Shown here: positions 4,477 through 53,215 of the stretch, in pieces
Layout: each line of letters opens with the position of its first letter
How positions within the stretch are numbered: position 1 is the stretch's first letter
DNA from: Chiloscyllium plagiosum
Taxonomy: Eukaryota
Assembly (NCBI RefSeq): GCF_004010195.1
Contig: NC_057717.1
Coordinates: 105,065,904 to 105,129,903 of the forward strand
Length of the DNA: 64,000 nt
Direction of reading: 5' to 3'
Made by a program: the position numbers and the translations under genes
Notes under the pieces: generated by a model
Database searches by the model: none
What the model was told of the DNA's origin: nothing
Seen by the model: only the letters and a program-made list of their open reading frames with translations

Positions 4477-4614
4477 GGAACATGAGGACTGCAGATGCTG
4501 GAGATCAGAGTCAAAAGTGTGGTGCTGGAAAAGCACAGCAGGTCGGGCAGCATCCGAGGAGCAGGAGAATTGACGTTTCAGGCAAAAGCCCTTCATCAGA
4601 ACCCTTCATCTATG
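4477..4614 (-). mobile_element. Short Penelope-derived insertion with hammerhead core
   Basis: 14-bp TSD ACTATAAACAAAGG (4463-4476, 4615-4628); minus strand CTGATGA AGGGC TTTT GCCT GAAACGTC. Confidence 0.8.
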
Positions 4615-6309: not shown

Positions 6310-6733
6310 TAGATTAGATAGATTGCCTACAGTACGGAATCAGCGCTGAAAATGTGTTGCTGGAAAAGCGCAGCAGGTCAGGCAGCATCCAGGGAACAGG
6401 AGAATCGACGTTTTGGGCATAAGCCCTTCTTCAGGAATCACAGGTAATTTGGCCCAACAAGTCCACACCGACCCTCCGAAGAGTAACCCACCCAGACTCA
6501 TTCCCCTACATTTACCCCCGACTAATGCACCTAACACTATGGGCAATTTAGCATGGCCAATTCACCTAACCTGCGCATCTCTGGACTGTGGGAGAAAATG
6601 GAGCACCCAGAGGAAATCCACGCAGACACAGGGAGGATGTACAAACTCCACACAGTCGCCTGAGGATGGAATCGAACCCAGGTCCCTGGCGCTGTGAGGC
6701 AGCAATGCTAACCACTGAGCCACCATGCTGCCT
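6310..6733 (-). mobile_element. HE1-like SINE containing a ~100-bp Penelope fragment (~6340-6440)
   Basis: Reverse complement of the SINE head at 6670-6733; TAGAT-repeat tail at 6310; insert homologous to 12531-12625. Confidence 0.8.
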
Positions 6734-11129: not shown

Positions 11130-12900
11130 ATTACATGTCTCCCCTTACTTAAGAAGGATATACTGGCACAGAGGGAGCCCAACAAAGGTTGACTGGACTG
11201 ATCTTAGGATGCCAAGATTGTCTGAAGGAGTAATCAAGAAGTCTAGCCCTGTATTCTGTAGAGTTTAGAAGTAAGAGAGGGACCACATTGATATTTGCAT
11301 AGTCCTTCTAGGTCTCAACAGGGTACATGCACAAAAGATGTTTCCCTTGGCTCAGGTGTCCAGAATTTGCGAACACAGATTCAGAATAAAGGGTAAGCAT
11401 TTAGGACAAAGGTGAGGAGGCATTTCTTCACTCAGGGTTGGTGAACCTTTGGATTTCTCTACCCCAAAGAACTGTGGAAGCTCATTCATTCAATTTAAGA
11501 CATTTCGCTACATTTCTAGTTTTTGAATACATTATTGGATATGGGGATATGGATTCAGTTCCCCTCTTTCTGACCACTGCTCACTTGATCACAACAAATA
11601 TTTGATTTCTTTTTAGCATGCAGCTACATCACACATATCATTTAAAATATGTGTGATGTAGCTAGATCAACGTCTCTTCATTGGAGTTAGTCCTGGGACA
11701 GCTCACAAGATTGATCCCAGGTACGGAGGGGTTTCCTTATGAGAAGAAGTTGAGTAGGTTGGGCCTGTGCCCATTGGAGTTTAGAAGAATGAGAAGTGAA
11801 CTTATGAAAACATATAAGATTTTTAGAAAGCTTAAAAAAGAGTAGATGCTGTAAGGTTGTTTCCCACTGTAAGAAACTTTGAGATCAGCGGGCATAATCT
11901 CAAAGCAAAATGTCACCTATTTAACAGAGGTGGAGGAATTTCTGCTTTCACAAGGTAGTGATTTGTGGATTCTTTTTAATGCAGAAAACTGTCAAGGCTG
12001 GATTATTAAGCATATTCAAAGATGTAGTAATTGAGATGTAGAAAGTGGAGTTGAGGATTATCAGATCAGCCATGATATTACCATTTGGTGGAGTAGACCA
12101 AATGGCCTACTTTTGCTTTAACATTTTATGGTCTTAGGAACATAGGAACACAAGTAGGCCATTCTGCCCATTGAGCCTGCTCTGCCATTTAATATACTCA
12201 GCTGATTAAATACTTCAAAGTCTTCAAGACACTCCAAGTTTAACAAAAAGAAGAGATAAAAGGGATAAATGAGAATATACTAAACTATCTACTTATAAAT
12301 TCAAATATTTTTAAACACACTATAAAGGCACAATATTTAATTTCAAAATAATTTCGAAGGAACTACAAAGTTTAACAACCTTCTGAATAAAATAAATTCT
12401 CTGCATCACTGTCTTAAATGGAATCCTCCCTATTTTTAAATTGTGCCCCTTAGTTCTAGTCTCCCCATCCAGAAGAAATGTCTTACCTGCATCCATCCTG
12501 TCTATTCCTTTAAGTATCTTTTTATTCTTAGATGGAAATGTGTTGCTGGAAAAGCGCAGCAGGTCAGGCAGCATCTAGGGAACAGGAGAATCGACGTTTC
12601 GGGCATTAGCCCTTCTTCAGGAAGGGCTTTTCCAGCAACACATTTCCATCTCTGATCTCCAGCATCTGCAGACCTCAATTTCTCCTCTTTTTATTCTTAA
12701 GCAATCTAAAATGGCACCGGATTGTGGCAACAATTGAAGCTTTCATTCTATTTTACCGTATTATTCACTATAAAATGTAAGTGATAATAAATCATTCAAT
12801 TCAATAAGTCTTCTAGAGATCAAATCTATTCTTCAAAACTCAAAGAGATACAGACCAAAGATCATCCAATCTCTCTTCATACAACAGACTCGTCAACCCA
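11130..12900. mobile_element. Cluster of old CR1 3'-end fragments (+ ~11130-11550, + ~11700-12135, - ~12137-12900)
   Basis: GAGTTTAGAAGAATGAGAAG motifs; KILKGIDRMDAGKTFLLDGETRTKGHNLKI on the minus strand. Confidence 0.7.
12531..12685. mobile_element. Fold-back Penelope-derived insertion with intact hammerhead core
   Basis: 14-bp TSD TCTTTTTATTCTTA (12517-12530, 12686-12699); inverted arms GATGGAAATGTGTTGCTGGAAAAGC; minus strand CTGAAGA AGGGC TAAT GCCC GAAACGTC. Confidence 0.85.
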
Positions 12901-21828: not shown

Positions 21829-22934
21829 TATTATCGGACAAGCCAAACAGAGAACAGCCAGGGAATTCCTAGAGGCATGGCACTCATCCACTGATTCAAT
21901 CAATAAGCACATTGACCGGCTACTGCAGCGGACAGCTGGAACTGACAACCGGAAGCAGCAGATAAATGCCGGAGGAAACATCACAGAAGCACTTCACAGG
22001 AGGCTCCCAAGCACTGAGGATGTCACCTAGACAGGGGATGAAACGTCTACAACACAAATTCCCAGCTCGGCGAACAGAACCACAACAGTAAAACATCATA
22101 CCATAGAGACTGATGGCATTAATGCGCATGTCTAGCATGCTGCATCCTAACATGTACATTGACCAGTATGAGCAGTATTACTGGCCTTGTACTGATGAAA
22201 GGATCTGTATTACTTAAAACATGACCAGATTTACTGGTGTCAAGATCAGTTCTATCTACTGGTCCCAAATTTGTTGTACCATCCTGGTAACTTCAACTTG
22301 CAGCAGCATTCAGGTAAGATCTCGACCCAAAAATGGTTCACGGGCTTTGATGGTACAGCAAAATGAATCAGCTAATTTCATGCTGTTTTTGTACAGAAAA
22401 TGAAAATAATCTAAACACTAAGCATAAAAAGCAACATTCTCATATTTCACAAAATGGTTAGGTAGAGATTGGATTGAGGTCAGCCAGAATATTAGTTCCC
22501 TGATTGGGGCTGTTAACCTGGTCCGATCAGGAAGCAGGACAGGTCGTCCTAGAGGTGGCCGGATGGTTTGTCAGGGTGGACTGAGAACTGGAAGGGGCAT
22601 GGTGTGGACCAAGAGTCAAAAGGGACGTAGGGGTGGGCTGCCTTAGAATGGTGGGAGGGACGGGGGATGGGGGGTGAGGGGATTGCTGGGTTTCTGGGGC
22701 TCTGTATTGTATGCACTGTTTTTTTATGTAATTGGACTGTCTTGTATATACAAAATGTCATTGTTACTCTTTTGTAATGATTGAAACTGGGATTTGAGGT
22801 TTGTCCTCATTTCCCTGAAAACAGGTTGAAAGGTAGGGTATGGGGCCTGGCTTTGCTGCTCCTTTCCCTTGTAAAATTGCTGTTTCTCTGAATACAGCTG
22901 TTAACATTAATTGTTTTATAAACTGTGAATTGTT

Positions 22935-24372
22935 TAGAACATAGAAACCTACAGCACAGAACAGGCCCTTTGGCCCACAATGTTGTGCCGAGGTTTAATC
23001 CTAATGTAAAATATAATAACCTACGCATCCCTCAACTCACTGATCTCCATGTGCATGTCCAGCAGTCACTTAAATGTCCCTAATGACTCTGCTTCCACCA
23101 CCACCGCTGGCAATGCATTCCATGCATTCACAACTCTCTGAGTAAAGAACCCTCTATACCTCGCTGACATCCCTTCTATACCTTTCCCTTAATATCTTAA
23201 AACTATGACCCCTCATACCCGTCAATCCTGCCCTGGGGAAAAGTCTCTGGCTATTGACTTTATCTATTCCTCTCACTGTCTTGTATACCTCGATCAGGTC
23301 TCCTCTCTTTCTCCTTCTCTCCAGAGAGAAAAGTCCAAGCTTTTTCAACCTTTCTTCATAAGGCAAGTCCTCCAGTCTAGGCAGCATCCTGGTAAACCTT
23401 CTTTGCACCCTCTCCAAAACCTCTGTATATTTTCTATAGTAGGGCGATCAGAACTGGACACAATATTCCATGTATGGTCTTGCCAGGGACTTGTAGAGCT
23501 GTAGCAAAGGTTCGCGGCTCTTAAACTCGATCCCCTTGTTAATGAAAGCCAAAACACCATATGCTTTCTTAACAACCCTATCCACTTGGGTGGCAACTTT
23601 GAGGGACCTATGTATTTGCACACCCAGATCCTTCTGTTCCTCCACACTTTCAAGAATCCTGTCTTTAATCCTATATTCAGCATTCGAGTTCGACTTTCCA
23701 AAATACATCGCCTCGCATTTATCCAGGTTGAACGCCATCCGCCACTTCTTAGCCCAGCTCTGCATCCTGTCTATGTCGCGCTCCAGCCTGCAATAGCCCT
23801 CGATACTATCGACACCACCTCCAACCTTTGTGTCATCTGCAAATTTACTAACCCACCCCTCAACTTCCTCATCCAAGTCATTTATAAGAACTACGAAGAG
23901 CAGAGGCCCAAGAACAGAGCCCTGCAGGTAGCCACTCACCACTGACCTCTAGGCAGAATACTTTCCATCTACAACCACTTTCTGCCTTCTGTCAGCCAGC
24001 CAATTATGAATCCAGATAGCCAAATCTCCCTGTATCCCATACTTTCTGACTTTATGAATGAGCCTACCATGGGGAACCTTATCAAATGCCTTGCTGAAGT
24101 GCATGTACACCACATCCACTGCTCGACCTTCGTCAACCTGTCTTGTCACCTTGTCGAATAACTCAATAAGATTTATTGAGGCATGACCTACCCCTCATAT
24201 AGCCATGCTGACTGCCTTTAATCATGCTGTGCTTTGCCAAATAGTTATAGATCCTATCCCTCAGAATTCTTTCCAAAACTTTGCTGACCATAGACGTAAG
24301 ACTGACTGGTCTGTAATTGCCAGGGATTTCCCTATTACCCTTCTTGAACAGAGGAACAACATTCACCTCCTT
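22935..24372 (-). mobile_element. Relatively young CR1 LINE (RT and 3' end) inside provirus 1
   Basis: PLFKKGNREIPGNYRPVSLTS, DVVYMHFSKAFDKVPH, QGSVLGPLLF, KFADDTK, ERVQRRFTRML. Confidence 0.92.
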
Positions 24373-24633: not shown

Positions 24634-27174
24634 CTGTCTTTCACAAAGCTGGACATGAGTCATGCGTACCTGAAATTGTGATTAGATGAGGATTCCCAGA
24701 GGTATGCTACAATTAATACCCAATGTAGAAGACTGCCTTTTGGGGTAGCATCAGCCTGTGCCATTTTCCAGCAGACAATGGAGAACACTTTACAAGGTCT
24801 AACCCAGGTCAACACTTATCTGGGTGATGCACTAATAACCAGGAAAACCAAGAAAGAACATTTAAAGAACTTGGACAAAGCATTTAAGCATTTCTCCATG
24901 GTGGGTGTTCATCCAGGCACTCTAAGTGACCTGCTTGGGCTAAGAGTCAACAAGACCAAGCTACACTTATTGGAAGATAAAATAAGGGCAATCAAAGGTG
25001 CCCCAGCTCCCATGTCTGTATGGGAGTTTAGGTATTCCCTTGAGTTGGTAAATTATTACGGAAAATACAAATGTAACCTGGCCTCCAGCCTGACACCCTT
25101 ACATCCAGTATCAATAAAGAGTCAGCCTTGAAAATGGTCTCATAGCCAAGATGCAACTTTTAGGGAAGCGAAGAAACAGCTATCATCCTCTAAGGTCACA
25201 CTACGATCCTAAGCAAGATGTGATGCTGTCATGCGATGCCTCCCCATATAGTATCGGGGTAGTGTTAGCTCACCAGCGCCATGGGAGAGGAACACCTGAT
25301 AGCGCATTCTTCCTAGACGTTGGCTAGTGCTGAACAAAAATACACCAAGATAGAGAAGGAAAGTTGGATGGTCATCTTTGGTGTGAATAAGTTCCACCAA
25401 CACCTTTATGGGCGTACATTTGTAATAGGAATGTACCACAATCGCCTGCTAGGTATACTTAAAGAGGACAAGGCTGTGCCACCCATAGCTTCAGGCCGAA
25501 TAAGTGGGCTCTTATTCTGAGTGCTGACAGTTACATGTTGGTACACTGTTCGGGAGGCCAAGTGGCAAATATGGATGCCTAGAGCCACCTCCCTCTGGCA
25601 GATACTCGATTGCTAGTACTGCCACTAGAAGAGCGTCCACTCTGCTTTTAAGCTTTCTGGACACCCTTTCTGTCACCACTGACGATATCAGACTGTAGAC
25701 ACAAAGCAATCCCGCCTTGACAAAACCAAAATAGCTGGCGGTGATTGGGGAAACAAAAGGGCCATCGCAACCAGAACTAATTCCTTTCTGCACCCATCGA
25801 GACCATAGAGGATGGCATATTATTATGGGGAGCAAGAGTAATTGTCCTGAACAAAGTTCACCGCCAGCTACTGGATGAACTCAACTCGGATTATCCAGAG
25901 GTTTCCAAAATGAAGATGTCAGCAAGAAGTTATGTCTGGTGGCCAGAATTGGATGCCAACATAGCTGCAATGGTGGGGCAGTGCCCAGAGTGCCAACAAA
26001 GACAAGAATTAATACCAGCAGCTCCCCCACATTCATGAGAATGGACTCTGTTACTCGTCGACTTCACCAATCCTTTCATGGGGTCTATATTCTTAGTCAT
26101 TGTGGAGTTCATTCAAAATGGTTGGATGTGCAAAGAGCTCATTTGTCAAACATGGGGATGACAACTGAACAGCTGCAAACATCTTTTGCAATCCACAGAC
26201 TCCCGGGGGTGTTGGTCACAAACAATGGGCCATCATTTACCAGCAAGGAATTAAATTATTTTCTAAAGTCAGTCAGCATTCAGCATGTAAGGACAACTCC
26301 ATATTATCCATTGTCCATACAATCTGGCGGAAAGAGCAGTCCAAACTTTGAAGGCAGACTTAAAGAAACAGCCTACAGCTTCACTTGATACCAAACTGGC
26401 CCAGTTTCTGTTTGATTATTGAAACACCCCTCATACCACGACAGGGGCTACTCCAGCAGAGTTGTTAATGGCGAGATGACTCCACCCCAGGTTAAACCCA
26501 ATCTTCCCAGACCTAGGGGAGAGGGTAAAACGGCATCAGGAATGCCAATGCTGAACACAAGAATCCACTAAACAAGAGAGACGGTTTACTTCAGGGGGCA
26601 AAGTTTTGGTGTTGAAACCATGGAAATGTTCCTGCATGGGTGAAAGGCATGGTCGACGTGAGAGCAGGTCTCATGACATACAGGTACAAGAGGTGATCCT
26701 GAACAAGCATATGGACGATATGAAATCTGCAACCTCCCAAACAGAGCAGGAGCAAAATATATCTAGCCCTTCAGAACATCAGGCAAGGCTGTCAGAACCC
26801 ATGGGCTCTCCCATGTGTCTAGCACCGAAGAAACTTCCAAGGACAGAATGAAAATGGCAGATGTCGCAGCCTCGACGCCATTATCACCTGAAGATTTATT
26901 TCTTCTGAAATGCTCTGGGCACAAGAGGCAGGCTACAGTCCAGTACGCCTCACCAGAATCCAAGGCAGAGTTAGGGGAACCAGACGTGGTGCGAAAACAC
27001 CCCACGAGAAGCTGCAGAAAAAACAAGGGACCTATGTACCAGGACTTAGAGGGGGATGGATGTAGTGATTGGAACAAGGTCAGCCAGGCGGACCTCATAG
27101 AATGAGTTCTCTGGTTAGGACTGTTAATCTGGTCCAATTAGGGAGTCCTGACTGACAGGTATAAACAGAAGTGT

Positions 27175-28134
27175 AAAAAATAAGCACTACCGCACTTAGG
27201 TGGTAGTGTGGGGGTTTAAAAAATATATAAACAGGAGATTGTCACTAAAAAAAAATAAACAGAAGTGTACACGGTCTCCACCAACACCCTGCAGTTGTTC
27301 AGGGAGAGGTGGGCACCGCAGGGAGTGGAGTGCATTATTTCCCCCTCCAACTCTATTTTGATTTAGTCCCTACCCTCCCCTTCACTGTTTGATCACACAG
27401 CACTGCCCTTTGATGTGAAGGGCAGTGTTTGTCACTGGCCACCCGGGTGTTTTCCTATCTTCCTGGTGGTGGAATTTGAATAAAGATTCGTGCACTTTGT
27501 GTCTTTCACTGTGTCTTACACCTGCACACACACACCATGGGTGCTGGGGAAGAAAATAAGCACTACCGCCGTTAGGTGGAAGTGTGGGGGTTATAAGAGA
27601 AAAAAAAATAAACAGAAGTGTACCCGGTCTCCACCAACACCCTGGAGTTGTTCAGGGAGAGGTGGGCGCCGCGGGGAGTGGAGTGCAGTATTTCCCCCTC
27701 CAACTCTATTTTGATTTAATCCCTGCCCTCCCCTTCACTGTTTGATTACACAGTGGGGGTAAACAAAAAATACAAGAGTGTCAGAGTTTCTGCTCACTCT
27801 AAAAAAAAGAAAAAAAAAGTAAACAGAAGTGTCCCTCCCCTTCACTATTTGATCACACTGCATTGCCCTTTGATGTGAAGGGCACTGCTGGTCACTGGCC
27901 ACTCGGGTGTTCCTTTCTTCCTGGTGGTGGAAATTGTATAAAGATTCATACACCTTGTGTCTCTCACTGTGTCTCATACCTGCACACACACAACATGGGT
28001 GCTGGGGAAATAATAAGCACTACCACAGGTAGGTGGTAGTGTGGGGGTAAACAAAAAAAACAAGAGTGTCAGAGTTTCTGCTCACTCTGACAGGCTATAG
28101 CGTGGGGGAAAAGGAGAAAAGAAAAAGAAAAAAG
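27175..28134 (+). mobile_element. Stacked 5'-truncated Tx1-like non-LTR retrotransposon 3' ends inside the Gypsy 3' LTR
   Basis: ORF end TVSTNTLQLFRERWAPQGVECIISPSNSILI* (27271-27366) resembles Tx1-clade ORF2 C-termini (recalled similarity); AATAAA, terminal hairpin, GGGGG and poly(A); units separated by TAAACAGAAGTGT. Confidence 0.75.
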
Positions 28135-28629
28135 AACAGGAAAGTCAGGGGTTCTGTTCACTCTAGTAGTTAGCTCTGAACTAGCTGGTAATGTACTATG
28201 CACATGTAACTAAACAGTGACTTGGTGATGGGATACCGGCCTTTCAGGTTACAGCACAGGAGCCATTGGCTGGTCATGTTGACTCCCTGGTAGAACTATT
28301 TATTTATAATTCCATTCCTCCCTACCTTCTTGAATCACTTCACATTCTTCCTTTCCAGAAAAGATTCCAATTCTCTTCTGAATGTCTTTACTATACTCTG
28401 GGATAGCGCATTCCAGACCTTAACCACATGTTACATGAAAACTATTTACCTCATGTCACCTTTGCTTCTTTGCCAATTACTTTAAATCTGTGAGTGTAGT
28501 TGTGGTCCAGAGTCATACAGCACAGAAACACACCCATCAGTCCAATTTGTCCAAGCCAACCAGACATCCTAATCTAACCTTGCACCTTATACCAATATTA
28601 ACAGTTTATTTCTGTTTTCCTGGAGTATT

Positions 28630-41635: not shown

Positions 41636-41842
41636 GAGAATGTGAGGACTGCAGATGCTGGAGATCAGAGTCGAGAGTATGGTGCTGGAAAAGCACAGCA
41701 GGTCAGGCAGCATCTGAGGAGCAAGAGATGCCTGATGAAGGGCCTATGCCTGAAACATTGATTATCCTGCTCTTCGGATGCTGCATGACCTGCTGTGCTT
41801 TTCCAGCACCACACTCTTGACTCCCAACCAATTTAGTCGCCT
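41636..41842. mobile_element. Fold-back Penelope-derived insertion with hammerhead core
   Basis: 19-bp TSD CTCCCA(A/C)CCATTTTAATAG (41617-41635, 41843-41861); inverted arms; CTGATGA AGGGC CTAT GCCT GAAACATT at 41732. Confidence 0.85.
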
Positions 41843-50400: not shown

Positions 50401-51769
50401 CCATTAATTTGTTGGGGTTCCCTGGTGTAGGTTTCCAACCAGGCCAAAGGTCTTCTGCAAACTTATGGAGTCCAGAGCAAATTTTGGTAAAGATTGGTTT
50501 CACAATCACTGATACATCCGCGCCAGTCTCAACCTCCATTATAACTGAGTTAACATTTAACCAGACACTTACTTTAAATAGTTCTGATTTGGATATTGCT
50601 AAGCAATTTAACTGTTCAAGTTACCTGTAGGTGGACTTTCCAGGGTGTGCACTCTCCTGGATACCTGCCTATGAGTTCTCTTACTCAATTCAAGCCTAGT
50701 GGCACACTTTTGCTGGTTGGTATGCATTCACATATCAGCTGCAAGTACAATGGTCTGCTTGCCCAGACCCTTGAGAAAATTTTAAACCATTTTGTCGAAG
50801 TTTGGCTTTGTTTTAGGGTTTTGCTGTGAGCTGACCAAGAGTGCCTCTATTCAGGATACGTCCTGAGTATGGTATTGCAATTGCATTCACTCAAGTGGTG
50901 TTCTCCAAATTCAGTTGAACTGGTGAGCGTGTTCACTTCCATTGGAATACCCTGTAACTCATATGTTCCAATTGCTGCATTTTCTAGTGACAGTGTGATA
51001 CCTGTTTGAAGTCCAGTTGGACTTCAGCTCATAGACATTTTTGCATGGTCACATCATTAATCCCACATATCAAATGGTCTCTCAGCATCTCACTTGGGGT
51101 CAAACCAAAGTCACATGCCTCTGCCAGTCATCTTAACCTCGTCAAAAATCCCAATACAAATTTCCCTGGTTCGCGAACTGCCAAATAAAACTGATAGCAT
51201 TTCAGAATTAGAGGCGGCTTGTGGTCATAATATTCCTTAGCTAAATCTGGCAACTCTTGAAAGGTTTTAGTATGTGGTGCCTCAGGAAAATTAGGCTCCT
51301 AATAACGGAAAAAGCTACAGGTCCATAAGCTGTCAGGAGAATTACTTGTTGCTTTTCGTCTGCCCCAATGCCATTTGGCTGGAAAGAAATAGCACATTCT
51401 TTCCACATACAGGGCCCAATCTTTGAGTCAAGCTTCCCAAATAGCATTATAATGCCAGAAATGCTTACCCCCAACTCAAAGGCAACTGTTATGAGTGAAT
51501 CTCTTTAGGTATGTGGTTTTCTCTTGTCCCCACTGCAATAACTCCAGGAAGGCTAGTACTTGGTCACTAAGTCACCCTTCATTTACACATGCATAGTATG
51601 TGACACTGACCCAACTAGCTCAGAGTTGGCACCTACTGTGAACAGAACCCCTGATACTCTATTTATATCAGTCAGTCAGGACTCCCTGATTGGGGCTGTT
51701 AACCTGATCCAAATCAGTGAACTCAAGTTTGATGAGGTCTACCTGGCTGATCTCGTTCCAATCACTACA
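47426..51769 (-). mobile_element. Gypsy LTR retrotransposon, near full-length decayed provirus 2
   Basis: 5' LTR 51769-51534 (TGTAGTGATTGG...TTATTGCA) then PBS-like GTGGGGACAAG; gag MLFGKLDS; protease MEVETGADVSVI; RT/RNase H remnants; integrase PWFQSHIEYADPFM..FLVIMDAH; partial 3' LTR ~47600-47426; flanks CAGTC/TAGCC may be a diverged 5-bp TSD. Confidence 0.9.
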
Positions 51770-53058
51770 TAGCCCTTCTGAAAGCTCACTTCAACCTGTT
51801 CCCAGGCCTCCACTATTAAAGTTATAAACTGGTTGGTAAGGTGAGGAGAGTCATTCCATTATTTTTCATACCAACCGAACCTCCAATCATTGCTTTCTAA
51901 TGTTAGAATGATATCGGCCCAATTCAGGGAATCACAGGCACATGGATTCCTTGGAATCATTAGACTCACATGCTAAATAGTCCTGACTTTCCAAATGGTT
52001 TCTAATTTTTCTGAAATATTCAGACATTGCTTTTGTCCACTATTAAAGAGAGTGGTTTCAGGCAAAATCCTCAGTCAAATATTTACCATTAAATTTAAGT
52101 AGAACACATTGAATATGGTGTTATCACTACAGTAATACTATAGTAACAGATCTGCTTTATATATTTCCATTTCACAGTTGGTGGTGCCTTGAACTATCAA
52201 GGCCATACACTGTGGAATTTCCACCTTAAACTTCTCAATAATAACCGATTCTCCTTAAAAGCTACTTTGACCAAGACCGGGCATTTCCGTTAGTAATGTT
52301 TGTCCAATTATATTCCTATGAAACTTCTGATCAATTCTCTCAAAGACAATGTATAAATGCAAGCTCTGAATGTTAAACAGCATCAATTTTCTCAAAGGAA
52401 ATGACCTATGCTGAGTTTCTTTTCCATTTTGACTGCCTGGCACTTAACCAAGCAGTACTCTTGTCAGTGTCAGCCCAGATAATAGCTGACTACCATGTCA
52501 TGTTCCTGGGGATAGGGAAAACAAAGAGAAAATGAAGAGGACATTACAGTAAATTGTGTTGCTGTTATCATGACCACTGGTCAGAAGTGCTATGGACAGT
52601 TCTGACTGTAAAACACATTTTGGAATTATAAGAGTGCTGATGCAGCAAAAGATAGCTGCAGATGTAAATTAAATGATGTCTGGAGAAGGAGAGACCCCTG
52701 AAATGTCACTCGAAAGGTATAAAAGAAATTCCAAACAATCTTTCAAAAGGAGGAAAGAGGTAAGTCAAAAAAGACTGGACTGTGATCTTGTGGCTACAAA
52801 GATAATTAGGAACGAATGCCCTCCTACTAAACAGAAAGCCACCCAGTGTGAATTATGCCCTAAACTGTAGATCCATTTTGTAGAATGCACAAGGACAGGT
52901 GCTAAAAAGACAGTTTCAACTGTACTGGATGGGCTACAGGGACGAAAGTTCTCAGGTGTGTATTAGCCTGGATTAGCGTACTGTGAAGTCCATACTTGAA
53001 GAACTATCCTATAGTCACCCATCAGTTGCAAGTAAAGGGACTCTTACTCTGAGCCAGC

Positions 53059-53215
53059 AGTTCAGGCAGCATCCAAGGAGCAGCAAAATCGACGTTTCGG
53101 GCAAAAGCCCTTCATCAGGACGTCGATTGCTGCCTGAACTGCTATGCTCTTCCAGCACCACTAATCCAAAATCTGGTTTCCAGCATCTGCAATCATTGTT
53201 TTTACCTGTTTTTAC
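53059..53215. mobile_element. Fold-back Penelope-derived insertion with perfect minimal hammerhead core
   Basis: 18-bp TSD CTCTTACTCTGAGCCAGC (53041-53058, 53216-53233); minus strand CTGATGA AGGGC TTTT GCCC GAAACGTC GA (53087-53120). Confidence 0.88.

Follow-up and report, generated by a model that had tools for sequence, protein, structure and literature searches.

A Tx1-clade LINE with a strong preference for the TATA-like box of short Gypsy-like LTRs in the shark Chiloscyllium plagiosum

Introduction

In crocodilians, two LINEs of the Tx1 clade, Tx1-8_Crp and Tx1-4_AMi, prefer LTR retrotransposons as targets (Kojima 2015, PMC4494074). In the same work, a family is considered target-specific when more than 20% of its flanks are of one sequence kind (PMC4494074). 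Some Tx1 families carry target-derived 5′ heads, from U1 or U2 (PMC4494074). Target-derived 5′ heads are also described for Keno and Tx1-Mar, together with suspected transcription from the promoter of the target and with non-autonomous partners that share the target (PMC4494074). The model for a dependence on target transcription is provided by R1 and R2 in rDNA, where read-through sequence aids integration (PMC4494074).

Here, we analyze a stretch of 64,000 nucleotides of the C. plagiosum genome (the window, whose numbering is used throughout), in which a short LTR is interrupted by an array of LINE fragments. We propose that a Tx1-clade LINE, with two open reading frames, an APE-type endonuclease, a reverse transcriptase (RT) and a zinc-binding tail, very probably integrates by target-primed reverse transcription, strongly preferring TA/TAAACAGGAGTGT/CAG at the TATA-like box of Ty3/Gypsy-like LTRs of ~230 bp.

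Results

Four truncated inserts in one LTR

The LTR is interrupted directly 3′ of TATAAACAGAAGTGT, i.e., after position 27174, and the array spans 27160-28146. Its features, with those of an uninterrupted paralogue in the same window, are as follows.

27048..27060, + strand: purine-rich tract adjoining the LTR, a candidate polypurine tract from direct reading (agagggggatgga, then TGTAGTG)
27061..27174, + strand: left arm of the LTR (U3 side), ending in TATAAACAGAAGTGT (27160-27174); 79.6% identical to 51770-51658 (− strand)
27160..27165, + strand: TATA-like box, within the left arm
27162..27174, + strand: target copy 1, the last part of the left arm
27175..27255, + strand: insert A, in which the terminal ~40 nt of the LINE are followed by an A-rich tail, a foreign target copy TATAAACAGGAGAT, TGTCACT (7 nt, from another LINE fragment) and A9
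27256..27268, + strand: target copy 2, TAAACAGAAGTGT, exact match
27269..27608, + strand: insert B, the terminal 340 nt of the LINE, A tail included
27609..27621, + strand: target copy 3, exact match
27622..27819, + strand: insert C, made up of unit positions 1-132 and, beyond an internal deletion, the LINE end, followed by a short tail, a foreign LTR piece CAAGAGTGTCAGAGTTTCTGCTCACTCT and an A tail
27820..27832, + strand: target copy 4, exact match
27833..28134, + strand: insert D, the most diverged, consisting of unit position 105 to the end, the transduced LTR piece of insert C extended further, and an A-rich tail
28135..28145, + strand: decayed last target copy, AACAGGAAAGT, from direct reading
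28146..28256, + strand: right arm of the LTR (R/U5 side), ending …TTACAGCA, as aligned with uninterrupted paralogues
51564..51770, − strand: diverged LTR paralogue with an empty site (…GATATAAATAGAGTATCAGGGGTTCTGTTCAC…), uninterrupted

The 13-nt target TAAACAGAAGTGT occurs exactly at 27162, 27256, 27609 and 27820, always on the + strand, without any further exact copy in the 64 kb; allowing up to two mismatches adds only two sites, both with two mismatches and both on the − strand. By arithmetic, a 13-mer would be expected ~0.002 times in the 128 kb of both strands. On direct reading, an A-rich tail precedes every later target copy. The variant TATAAACAGGAGAT is located at 27226-27239, and the LTR resumes at 28146 with CAGGGGTTCTGTTCACTC, past the decayed target copy. 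The paralogue at 51770-51564 is continuous across the insertion site.

We read the array as four inserts, each of them the 5′-truncated 3′ end of a LINE. All align to a reference unit of 340 nt (27269-27608), namely 27177-27216 to unit positions 285-324 (92.5% identity), 27622-27753 to positions 1-132 (93.9%) and 27833-28060 to positions 105-339 (86.8%). The 5′ ends of A, B, C and D thus correspond to unit positions 285, 1, 1 and 105, and their ends differ. As units they measure 81, 340, 198 and 302 nt, with a LINE content of ~40 nt in A, 340 nt in B, 132 nt plus the end of the element in C, and ~220 nt in D. Tandem Repeats Finder reports short A-rich repeats only in this region, and the array lacks the combination of equal-length units, identical junctions and mutually closest copies that defines a plain tandem repeat or segmental duplication.

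Several of these points had been made in a preliminary description of the locus. The split directly after TATAAACAGAAGTGT, the four exact target copies, each later one behind an A-rich tail, and inserts with a common LINE 3′ end and varying truncations are all borne out. The six inserts counted there reduce to four, 27238-27255 being the end of insert A and 28059-28134 the end of insert D. The LTR does resume, as had been stated, its right arm beginning at 28146, after the decayed target copy at 28135-28145.

The 3′ portions of three inserts hold sequence from elsewhere. The foreign target copy in insert A, whose GGAGAT(T) variant is also found in three other arrays (L002, L007 and L029), is probably a 3′ transduction, and the shared 48-nt end of C and D (repeat family D5) is 98% identical. 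A, C and D thus appear to have acquired fragments of other target sites by 3′ transduction, which would mean that the source copies of these three inserts also resided in such sites and were read through.

The interrupted element is probably Gypsy-like

Two further features of the window concern the host of the array.

24682..26388, + strand: remnants of pol from the host LTR retrotransposon, decayed, with RT followed by integrase (Pfam)
22455..22935, + strand: diverged LTR left arm (22455-22534, ~70% like the arm of the 3′ LTR), interrupted at GACAGGT by a copy of a second poly(A) retroposon family (22535-~22935)

The pol remnants comprise RVT_1 (24682-25131, E 1.6e-6, below the gathering score), Integrase_H2C2 (25781-26038, E 6.4e-9) and rve (25879-26388, E 4e-4, below the gathering score). 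A search for homologues of the integrase yielded two distant relatives only, on which the rve and RT_RNaseH families are found. The order of RT and integrase, the H2C2 integrase, the TG…CA LTR and the purine tract before the 3′ LTR are those of Ty3/Gypsy elements, in remnants that are decayed. These features support a host that is probably a Ty3/Gypsy-like element with short (~230 bp) LTRs. The preliminary description had named a Gypsy LTR, and the remnants lie upstream of it on the same strand, followed by the purine tract and TG; the assignment is one of likeness, not of rigorous classification.

For the left arm, a first look at the genome gives at least 3656 candidates, and the best paralogue is 84% identical; no closer 5′ LTR partner was found genome-wide. 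The arm at 22455-22534 may represent the 5′ LTR that belongs to this element. By its position only, TATAAA is a candidate for the working promoter of the LTR.

By similarity, the LINE groups with Tx1

The LINE extends 5′ of the start of insert B in other copies. One of these, L047, has a 708-residue frame with Exo_endo_phos (E 2e-4, below the Pfam cut-off) and RVT_1 (3.7e-19, above it), followed in a later frame by zf-RVT (4e-5, just below the cut-off) and preceded, upstream of the ORF2 frames, by an ORF1-like region with a CCHC motif. An APE-type endonuclease, an RT and a C-terminal zinc-binding region, i.e., the domains of the Tx1 clade, are therefore all represented. The ORF2 of L090, a natural long copy, aligns with the Xenopus 'Transposon TX1 149 kDa protein' (YTX2_XENLA) with 842 bits, 53% identity and 91% coverage. 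Its score against human L1 ORF2p is four-fold lower (214 bits, over EN and RT, query residues 54-801), and that of the LINE ORF2 against R2 is at most 74 bits. These scores bear out the Tx1-like character proposed earlier, and the ORF2 would accordingly be grouped with Tx1 and not with L1 or R2. Its best partial protein matches are from cartilaginous fishes.

The A-rich 3′ tail, frequent 5′ truncation and target-site duplication, all of which this LINE shows, are hallmarks of target-primed reverse transcription. First-look candidates in the genome number at least 2382 for the 3′ 340 nt, at least 2761 for the next 492 nt and at least 760 for the RT end, i.e., they fall toward the 5′ end of the LINE. 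Insert B is 93-96% identical to the 40 candidates that were scored among the at least 2382.

Preference for one nucleotide position genome-wide

On the LTR side, only the left arm was used to rank paralogues by similarity, and 39 of these were considered. The site is uninterrupted in 27 of them, is occupied by the LINE in seven, has tiny A-tail inserts with target duplications in two, and has other repeats nearby in three. All seven LINE inserts are in sense orientation. Their 5′ junction lies directly after GTGT in five cases and at most 3 nt off in the other two; the exceptions are L086, where it follows GAGTG, and L054, where it follows either GTGT or GTGTCAG (ambiguous). Truncation points differ, except in the close pair L053 and L071. 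The differing 5′ truncation points at this one nucleotide show that the insertions are independent. The genome contains 989 exact CTGACAGATATAAACAGGAGTGT sites, of which 607 continue with CAG. When 20 of the non-canonical (non-CAG) sites were sampled in positional order, six contained the LINE, two a second retroposon family, which shares its target site with the LINE, and one a tiny insert; nine were sequence variants of empty sites and two were other cases.

On the LINE side, 465 of 3097 exact 20-mers of the 3′ end have AAACAGGAG 4-34 nt downstream, and the reversed-pattern control gives 0. A target-like 11-mer, AACAGGAGTGT (up to two mismatches), lies within 80 nt of 33 of 75 LINE 3′ ends (36 loci), against 1.0 on average and at most 5 in shuffles. 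An LTR U3 arm is found directly upstream, in the same orientation as the LINE, in 12 of 29 loci. More than 20% of the flanks are thus of one sequence kind, which is how target specificity is defined in Kojima 2015, in a sample partly ranked by similarity; all loci were picked by such ranking, except for the exact 3′-end count, the 989-site count and the 20-site sample. The specificity is a strong preference and is not absolute. The surroundings of L011, L019, L023, L030 and the long copy in L047 are not LTRs, some of them having only an AACA-like start of the duplication, and LTR arms are present at only one of eight long-flank loci picked via an internal segment of the LINE.

The stacking seen in the window, attributed earlier to regenerated targets, recurs at most of the loci fetched. 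L004 is a clean stack of two inserts, and L025 contains a locus-specific target variant, TAAACATGAGTGT, three times, i.e., true target duplications. In the mechanism that we propose, the endonuclease would nick the bottom strand within or beside the TATA box, the cDNA would be primed on the A tail, and the top strand would be cut 12-13 nt downstream, past GTGT. With cuts staggered in this way, each insert would come to lie between copies of (T)AAACAGGAGTGT; and with the target regenerated on both sides, more copies could stack in the same orientation. The window would then hold four such insertion events, all 5′ truncated. Because the junctions are precise and the orientation fixed, we infer that the endonuclease is the determinant of specificity.

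It might instead be that no sequence is recognized, i.e., that an L1-like endonuclease favours T/A-rich sites such as a TATA box, perhaps where active LTRs have open chromatin, and that inserts are better retained in junk LTRs. The L1 endonuclease follows the rule TTTT/A, which the predicted bottom-strand nick (…CTGTTTA/TA) resembles; duplications outside LTRs often begin with (T)TAAAC or are A-rich; and the other repeats in three of the 39 LTRs lie ~30 nt or less from the site. Nevertheless, in all 13 LINE-occupied LTRs sampled the 5′ junction follows GTGT or is at most 3 nt off, the orientation is always sense, and the duplication is fixed at 12-13 nt. In addition, 15% of LINE ends precede one exact 9-mer, and the LTR family that harbours at least 12 of 29 LINE loci represents a tiny share of the A/T-rich sites of the genome. 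A retention bias cannot produce precision to the nucleotide, and we consider this explanation improbable.

Independence of the inserts

A second possibility is a single insertion followed by local tandem duplication, through unequal crossing-over at the target copies or A tails, so that the units would not be independent. B and C share their starting point on the LINE, with 93.9-95% identity between them, and C and D have their 48-nt end in common. In other arrays (L010, L014, L022, L007 and L028), neighbouring units often share a truncation point and a target variant. Within the window, however, the 5′ ends differ, as do the 3′ structures: A contains a foreign GGAGAT target piece, B has no foreign piece, and C and D have an LTR piece that is followed by poly(A) at two different points. 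Moreover, B and C each have closer relatives at other loci, on other contigs (97.0% and 95.3%, respectively). The median identity to other copies of the family also varies by unit, being 94.5% for B, 91.7% for C and 87.3% for D, and independent LTR copies elsewhere have been struck at the same nucleotide. Tandem duplication, which the preliminary description had raised against its own reading, is therefore very unlikely as the origin of this array; given the truncation points and target variants shared by neighbours elsewhere, local duplication or multi-unit transduction also builds arrays.

By these medians, the inserts in the window increase in age from left to right. In 15 other arrays of at least three units, the trend is mixed (10 negative and 5 positive rank correlations), in a choice of loci that is biased.

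That a LINE fragment was once acquired by an LTR subfamily and multiplied as the LTR element retrotransposed, the insert being shared by descent, is scarcely credible: LTR copies are indeed numerous (the at least 3656 candidates above) and LINE-LTR fusions are found in many places, but occupied LTRs differ in their 5′ truncation points (from ~40 nt to ORF2 sequence) and in unit number, their target duplications match the local LTR variant, and under the established scheme of LTR replication a faithful transfer into both LTRs would not be expected for sequence inserted between TATA and R. A misassembly of repeats, which the preliminary description had also considered, has a negligible probability, because even in this region of high-copy repeats, where none of the short-read contigs spans the full array, exact contigs of two studies bridge the C/D and D/LTR junctions (27772-27874 and 28059-28350 in run X1, 28084-28350 in run X3, from another study, the best-matching run being possibly the assembly's own sample), and the same architecture is found at dozens of loci on many contigs. 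Read contigs from two related species, labelled organism B and organism C, are short, and paralogues dominate among them; in organism C, one contig aligns with the right flank starting at 28145, and a second with the left flank as far as 27102.

An LTR-like 5′ head

LINE copies with a complete 5′ end open with ~52 nt resembling the LTR sequence that directly follows the predicted nick (CAGAGGTTCTGTTCACTCTGAGAGCTGG…GGATCAGTGT). The heads share an insertion, GTGTG(C/T)GC, that is absent from 18 aligned LTR right arms (17 paralogues and that of the window). An origin of the head from another insertion site, located 75-80 nt deeper in the LTR, was rejected, since by reading none of 83 LINE 3′ flanks enters the AATAAA region, and since GTGTG(C/T)GC is lacking in the LTR arms.

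Because the head matches the LTR downstream of the cut, a full-length insertion behind TATAAACAGGAGTGT would rebuild the TATA-to-start arrangement in front of the LINE. Such an insertion would also separate the R region of the LTR from its promoter, and arrays would be transcribed from the LTR U3 as a single RNA. The LTR-like head and the 5′ transductions are hints, of an indirect kind, that the LINE may use the LTR promoter. Judging from these sequence features, the LINE could be a promoter parasite of the LTR family, both depending on the LTR element and disabling it; we offer this only tentatively, at somewhat below even chances. If it is true, transcription as a single RNA would explain why dispersed long copies (L020 and L047) carry 5′-transduced LINE fragments, why 3′ transductions are frequent, and why a second, non-autonomous retroposon family is present at the same site.

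Discussion

The locus is a well-supported instance of a vertebrate LINE that selects a single nucleotide position within a different retrotransposon, and the genome offers thousands of natural target copies, filled and empty. Such a system is suited to asking how an APE-type endonuclease reads a site of 13-20 nt, and to studying promoter borrowing by LINEs and how one mobile element checks another. Should the LTR-like head indeed rebuild a promoter, this would illustrate clearly how a LINE has adapted its 5′ end to its landing site. For annotation, the preference accounts for many arrays of LINE fragments in this genome, which are not satellites.

The closest named protein is that of Tx1L, the type element from Xenopus laevis (53% identity over 91% of the EN-RT part), whose target duplication is short, and whose target is the Tx1D DNA transposon repeat and not an LTR. 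Tx1L is likewise sequence-specific, and uses another multicopy transposon as its landing pad (PMC4494074). R1 and R2 differ in that they belong to other clades, the endonuclease of R2 is restriction-like, and the target is a host gene rather than a retrotransposon.

Keno, a Tx1-clade element in U2 snRNA genes, and Tx1-Mar with its SINEU partners resemble the shark LINE in their site-specific insertion into a multicopy transcribed unit (PMC4494074). The second retroposon family at the site of the shark LINE parallels the SINEU partners of Tx1-Mar (PMC4494074). Their targets are Pol II/III snRNA genes or a Mariner element (PMC4494074), whereas the target here is an LTR. In addition, the head of the shark LINE matches sequence downstream of the insertion point, unlike those of Keno and Tx1-Mar, and not upstream of it.

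The preliminary description knew of no account of this LINE-LTR pair in sharks, and a literature search at the level of abstracts found nothing specific for cartilaginous fishes. The crocodilian Tx1-8_Crp and Tx1-4_AMi differ in their host, and their site within the LTR is not given in the main text of that report (PMC4494074). They do target LTR retrotransposons, as does the shark LINE (PMC4494074). The pairing of a Tx1 family with LTRs is thus not unprecedented.

Anatomy of the split LTR and its inserts

The short Ty3/Gypsy-like LTR begins with TGTAGTG at 27061, is broken at TATAAACAGAAGTGT (27160-27174), resumes at 28146 with CAGGGGTTCTGTTCACTC and ends near 28256. The 13-nt target at its TATA-like box, TAAACAGAAGTGT, is repeated exactly at 27256, 27609 and 27820, each copy behind an A-rich tail, as the preliminary description had noted. 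A pattern search of the 64-kb window found no exact copies beyond those in the LTR array. That description was also right that the LTR resumes after the array, but position 28135, which it gave for the resumption, is a decayed target copy (AACAGGAAAGT) ahead of the right (R/U5) arm. A diverged LTR paralogue (51770-51564, minus strand) crosses the site without interruption, and thus represents an empty site.

Features of the host element and the inserts in the window
24682-25131, plus: RVT_1 remnant of decayed pol (Pfam domain match)
25781-26038, plus: Integrase_H2C2 remnant of decayed pol (Pfam domain match)
25879-26388, plus: rve remnant of decayed pol (Pfam domain match)
27048-27060, plus: purine run directly before the LTR (read from sequence)
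27175-27255, plus: insert A; last ~40 nt of the unit, tail, TATAAACAGGAGAT and TGTCACT, A9
27269-27608, plus: insert B, 340 nt
27622-27819, plus: insert C; unit 1-132, internal deletion, unit end, short tail, CAAGAGTGTCAGAGTTTCTGCTCACTCT, new A tail
27833-28134, plus: insert D; unit 105 to end, the foreign LTR piece of insert C extended further, A-rich tail

Alignment of all inserts to a single unit (27269-27608, a LINE 3' end), with a re-reading of transduced pieces, reduces the six inserts originally claimed to four. We take TATAAACAGGAGAT and TGTCACT in insert A as a putative 3' transduction from a source array. A separate 18-nt insert at the end of A was dropped, since the GGAGAT(T) target form and a LINE fragment starting TGTCACTGG recur together in arrays elsewhere in the genome (L010, L002, L007 and L029). 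The foreign LTR pieces in C and D are 98% identical over 48 nt and differ from the local right arm, which indicates that the source copy of both occupied the corresponding position of a different LTR. Repeatedly, an LTR piece transduced behind a LINE tail ends 17-22 nt beyond the cut (TTCACTCT), where a new A tail begins (window 27772-27800; L102, L098, L105 and L006). A preferred RNA 3' end could be the cause, as could previous insertions of A stretches only, with long duplications like that of L076.

The inserts appear to represent at least three separate events, and probably four, judging from their sequences. B and C are 93.9% identical, and each is closer to copies on other contigs (97.0% for B, 95.3% for C) than to the other; median identity to the family is 94.5% for B, 91.7% for C and 87.3% for D, and the 5' and 3' ends of the inserts differ. 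Separate events are therefore favored over local duplication of a single insertion, the alternative raised at the outset. In arrays L010, L014, L022, L007 and L028, neighboring units often agree in both 5' truncation point and target variant (3-5 times), which suggests that unequal crossing-over or multi-unit transduction contributes there in addition to independent insertion.

Other repeats are present in the window. A diverged LTR left (U3) arm at 22455-22534 is interrupted after GACAGGT, ~13 nt short of the usual 5' junction; the interrupting sequence is a copy of a second poly(A) retroposon family (family 2), itself cut by another repeat. This arm possibly belongs, as its 5' LTR, to the element with the pol remnants at 24682-26388. 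An RVT_1 fragment on the opposite strand within the LTR element (23448-23948, minus, E 2e-10) is likely another inserted LINE. A dispersed ~90-nt repeat (GCTGGAAAAGCRCAGCAGGTCAGGCAGCATC), found five times (4512-4602, 6347-6437, 12533-12623, 41672-41762 and 53031-53121), has no relation to the LINE/LTR array.

Identity of the inserted LINE

The 340-nt unit yielded at least 2382 first-look candidates in the 3.56-Gb genome, in which the window occupies C8:105065904-105129903; the 40 scored are 93-96% identical. The element extends upstream of the unit in other copies, and an upstream walk led to a long natural copy in L047, with an ORF1-like region containing a CCHC motif, a 708-aa frame that matches RVT_1 and, weakly, Exo_endo_phos, and zf-RVT in a later frame. 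The EN-RT part of the L090 copy (805 aa) matches the Xenopus 'Transposon TX1 uncharacterized 149 kDa protein' with 842 bits (53% identity, 91% coverage) versus 214 bits for human L1 ORF2p; partial protein matches to shark and skate records show 48-64% identity and hint at a cartilaginous fish as the host. By similarity, the inserted element is a Tx1-clade LINE, as had been proposed.

Preference for the LTR site

Because the LTR query consisted of the left arm only, ending at the break, filled and empty sites score alike. This search gave at least 3656 candidates, and 161 nt around the site were fetched for all 39 other scored paralogues. The site is uninterrupted in 27 of these; seven carry LINE sequence in sense orientation, two carry tiny A-tail inserts with 15-17-nt duplications, and three have other repeats nearby. 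The LINE starts directly after GTGT in five of the seven and at most 3 nt away in two (L086, after GAGTG; L054, ambiguous), with 5' truncation points ranging from a ~70-nt end piece up to ORF2 sequence. Among 989 exact genomic matches to CTGACAGATATAAACAGGAGTGT, CAG follows in 607. Twenty non-CAG sites (16 on C1, 4 on C2), sampled by position, comprised six with the LINE directly after GTGT, two with the second retroposon, one tiny insert, nine empty-site variants and two with something else. By extrapolation, ~17% of canonical sites would be occupied, in line with 9/39 paralogues. In L070, L079, L081, L136 and L139, unrelated repeats or unknown sequence are inserted at most ~30 nt away from this LTR position.

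The flanks of LINE 3' ends were also examined. An exact 20-mer at the 3' end has 3097 copies, 465 of them with AAACAGGAG 4-34 nt downstream, while reversed-pattern controls gave 0. AACAGGAGTGT (up to 2 mismatches) follows 33 of 75 LINE 3' ends in 36 fetched loci (shuffle mean 1.0). In 12/29 loci, the LINE or LINE array is immediately preceded by an LTR U3 arm of matching orientation; several of the other loci run off the 1.5-kb flank. LTR arms were found in only 1/8 long-flank loci. The local target variant TAAACATGAGTGT, present three times in L025, and the clean stack of two inserts in L004 indicate that the duplications are real target duplications. Thus, the LINE does prefer the LTR site, but the proposed target specificity is not strict: exceptions located elsewhere are L011, L019, L023, L030 and the L047 long copy.

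Proposed insertion mechanism

The inserts have A tails, are truncated at the 5' end and lie in sense orientation between duplications of 12-13 nt, (T)AAACAGGAGTGT. In 13/13 occupied LTRs sampled, the 5' junction falls at GTGT/CAG or at most 3 nt away; the duplication start shifts by a few nt, and TATATAAAC is kept at some junctions. Target-primed reverse transcription is the established scheme on which the following steps are based. The bottom strand would be nicked first, inside the TATA or beside it; cDNA would be primed on the A tail; and a second nick 12-13 nt downstream would restore the target on both sides of the insert. With the target so regenerated, stacking would be possible.

An LTR-like head on the LINE

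LINE copies with a complete 5' end start with an LTR-like head. In L020, a truncated LINE and tail are followed by CAGGAGTGT and then by CAGAGGTTCTGCTCACTCTGAGAGCTGG…GGATCAGTGT, a stretch continuing for at least 500 nt into a homologue of the 5' region of the L047 long copy. The L020 head junction gave 1844 candidates. A target-like motif precedes the head in 18 of 20 copies examined, mostly behind stacked retroposon fragments; of the other two heads, one lies behind an LTR left arm that has lost its TATA region and one is joined to a 3' piece of a LINE. After extension by 600 nt, 4/10 head copies showed the U3 arm of an LTR ahead of the stack. The first ~52 nt match the right arm of one LTR subtype and then diverge. 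A GTGTG(C/T)GC insertion common to heads occurs in none of 18 aligned LTR right arms, which argues that the head is passed on as part of the LINE.

Although located outside LTRs, L047 and L020 have the head and an upstream LINE 3' fragment, which in L047 spans 283 nt and is 95% identical to the 3' region of the same copy:
L047:484-766 versus L047:7653-7935: 5' fragment versus 3' region (repeat comparison)
Their template RNAs thus appear to have started within a source array, ahead of the head; such starts would fit transcription driven by the LTR U3. The 5' regions of long copies contain, once or as several tandem repeats, a segment with 95% identity to their own 3' region, and these repeats could instead form an internal promoter. 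These segments may be either stacked fragments from 5' transduction or monomer-like promoter repeats.

A second retroposon family

Family 2 uses the same LTR site as the LINE and shows the same local duplication of the target. Its body is GC-rich and internally repeated, and its tail ends in GTAATTTGTTTAATAAAAT plus A.
Family-2 copies: L025:1914-2584; window 22535 to ~22935; L127, L134, L091, L095, L096, L100
It has at least 2611 first-look candidates, and the best 40 full-length matches are 86-92% alike. This family is probably a partner mobilized by the Tx1 machinery.

Comparison with known Tx1 elements

Both the observation and the core interpretation, a Tx1-clade LINE stacked in an LTR, stand. 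An abstract-level literature search found no description of such a LINE/LTR pair in cartilaginous fishes. Targets of Tx1 elements listed in Kojima 2015 (PMC4494074) include Tx1D, U2, microsatellites, Mariner and Harbinger; the crocodilian families Tx1-8_Crp and Tx1-4_AMi are reported there to prefer LTR retrotransposons. The LTR-matching head, which recalls the U1/U2 heads described there for some Tx1 families, is possibly the new part, a twist worth testing.
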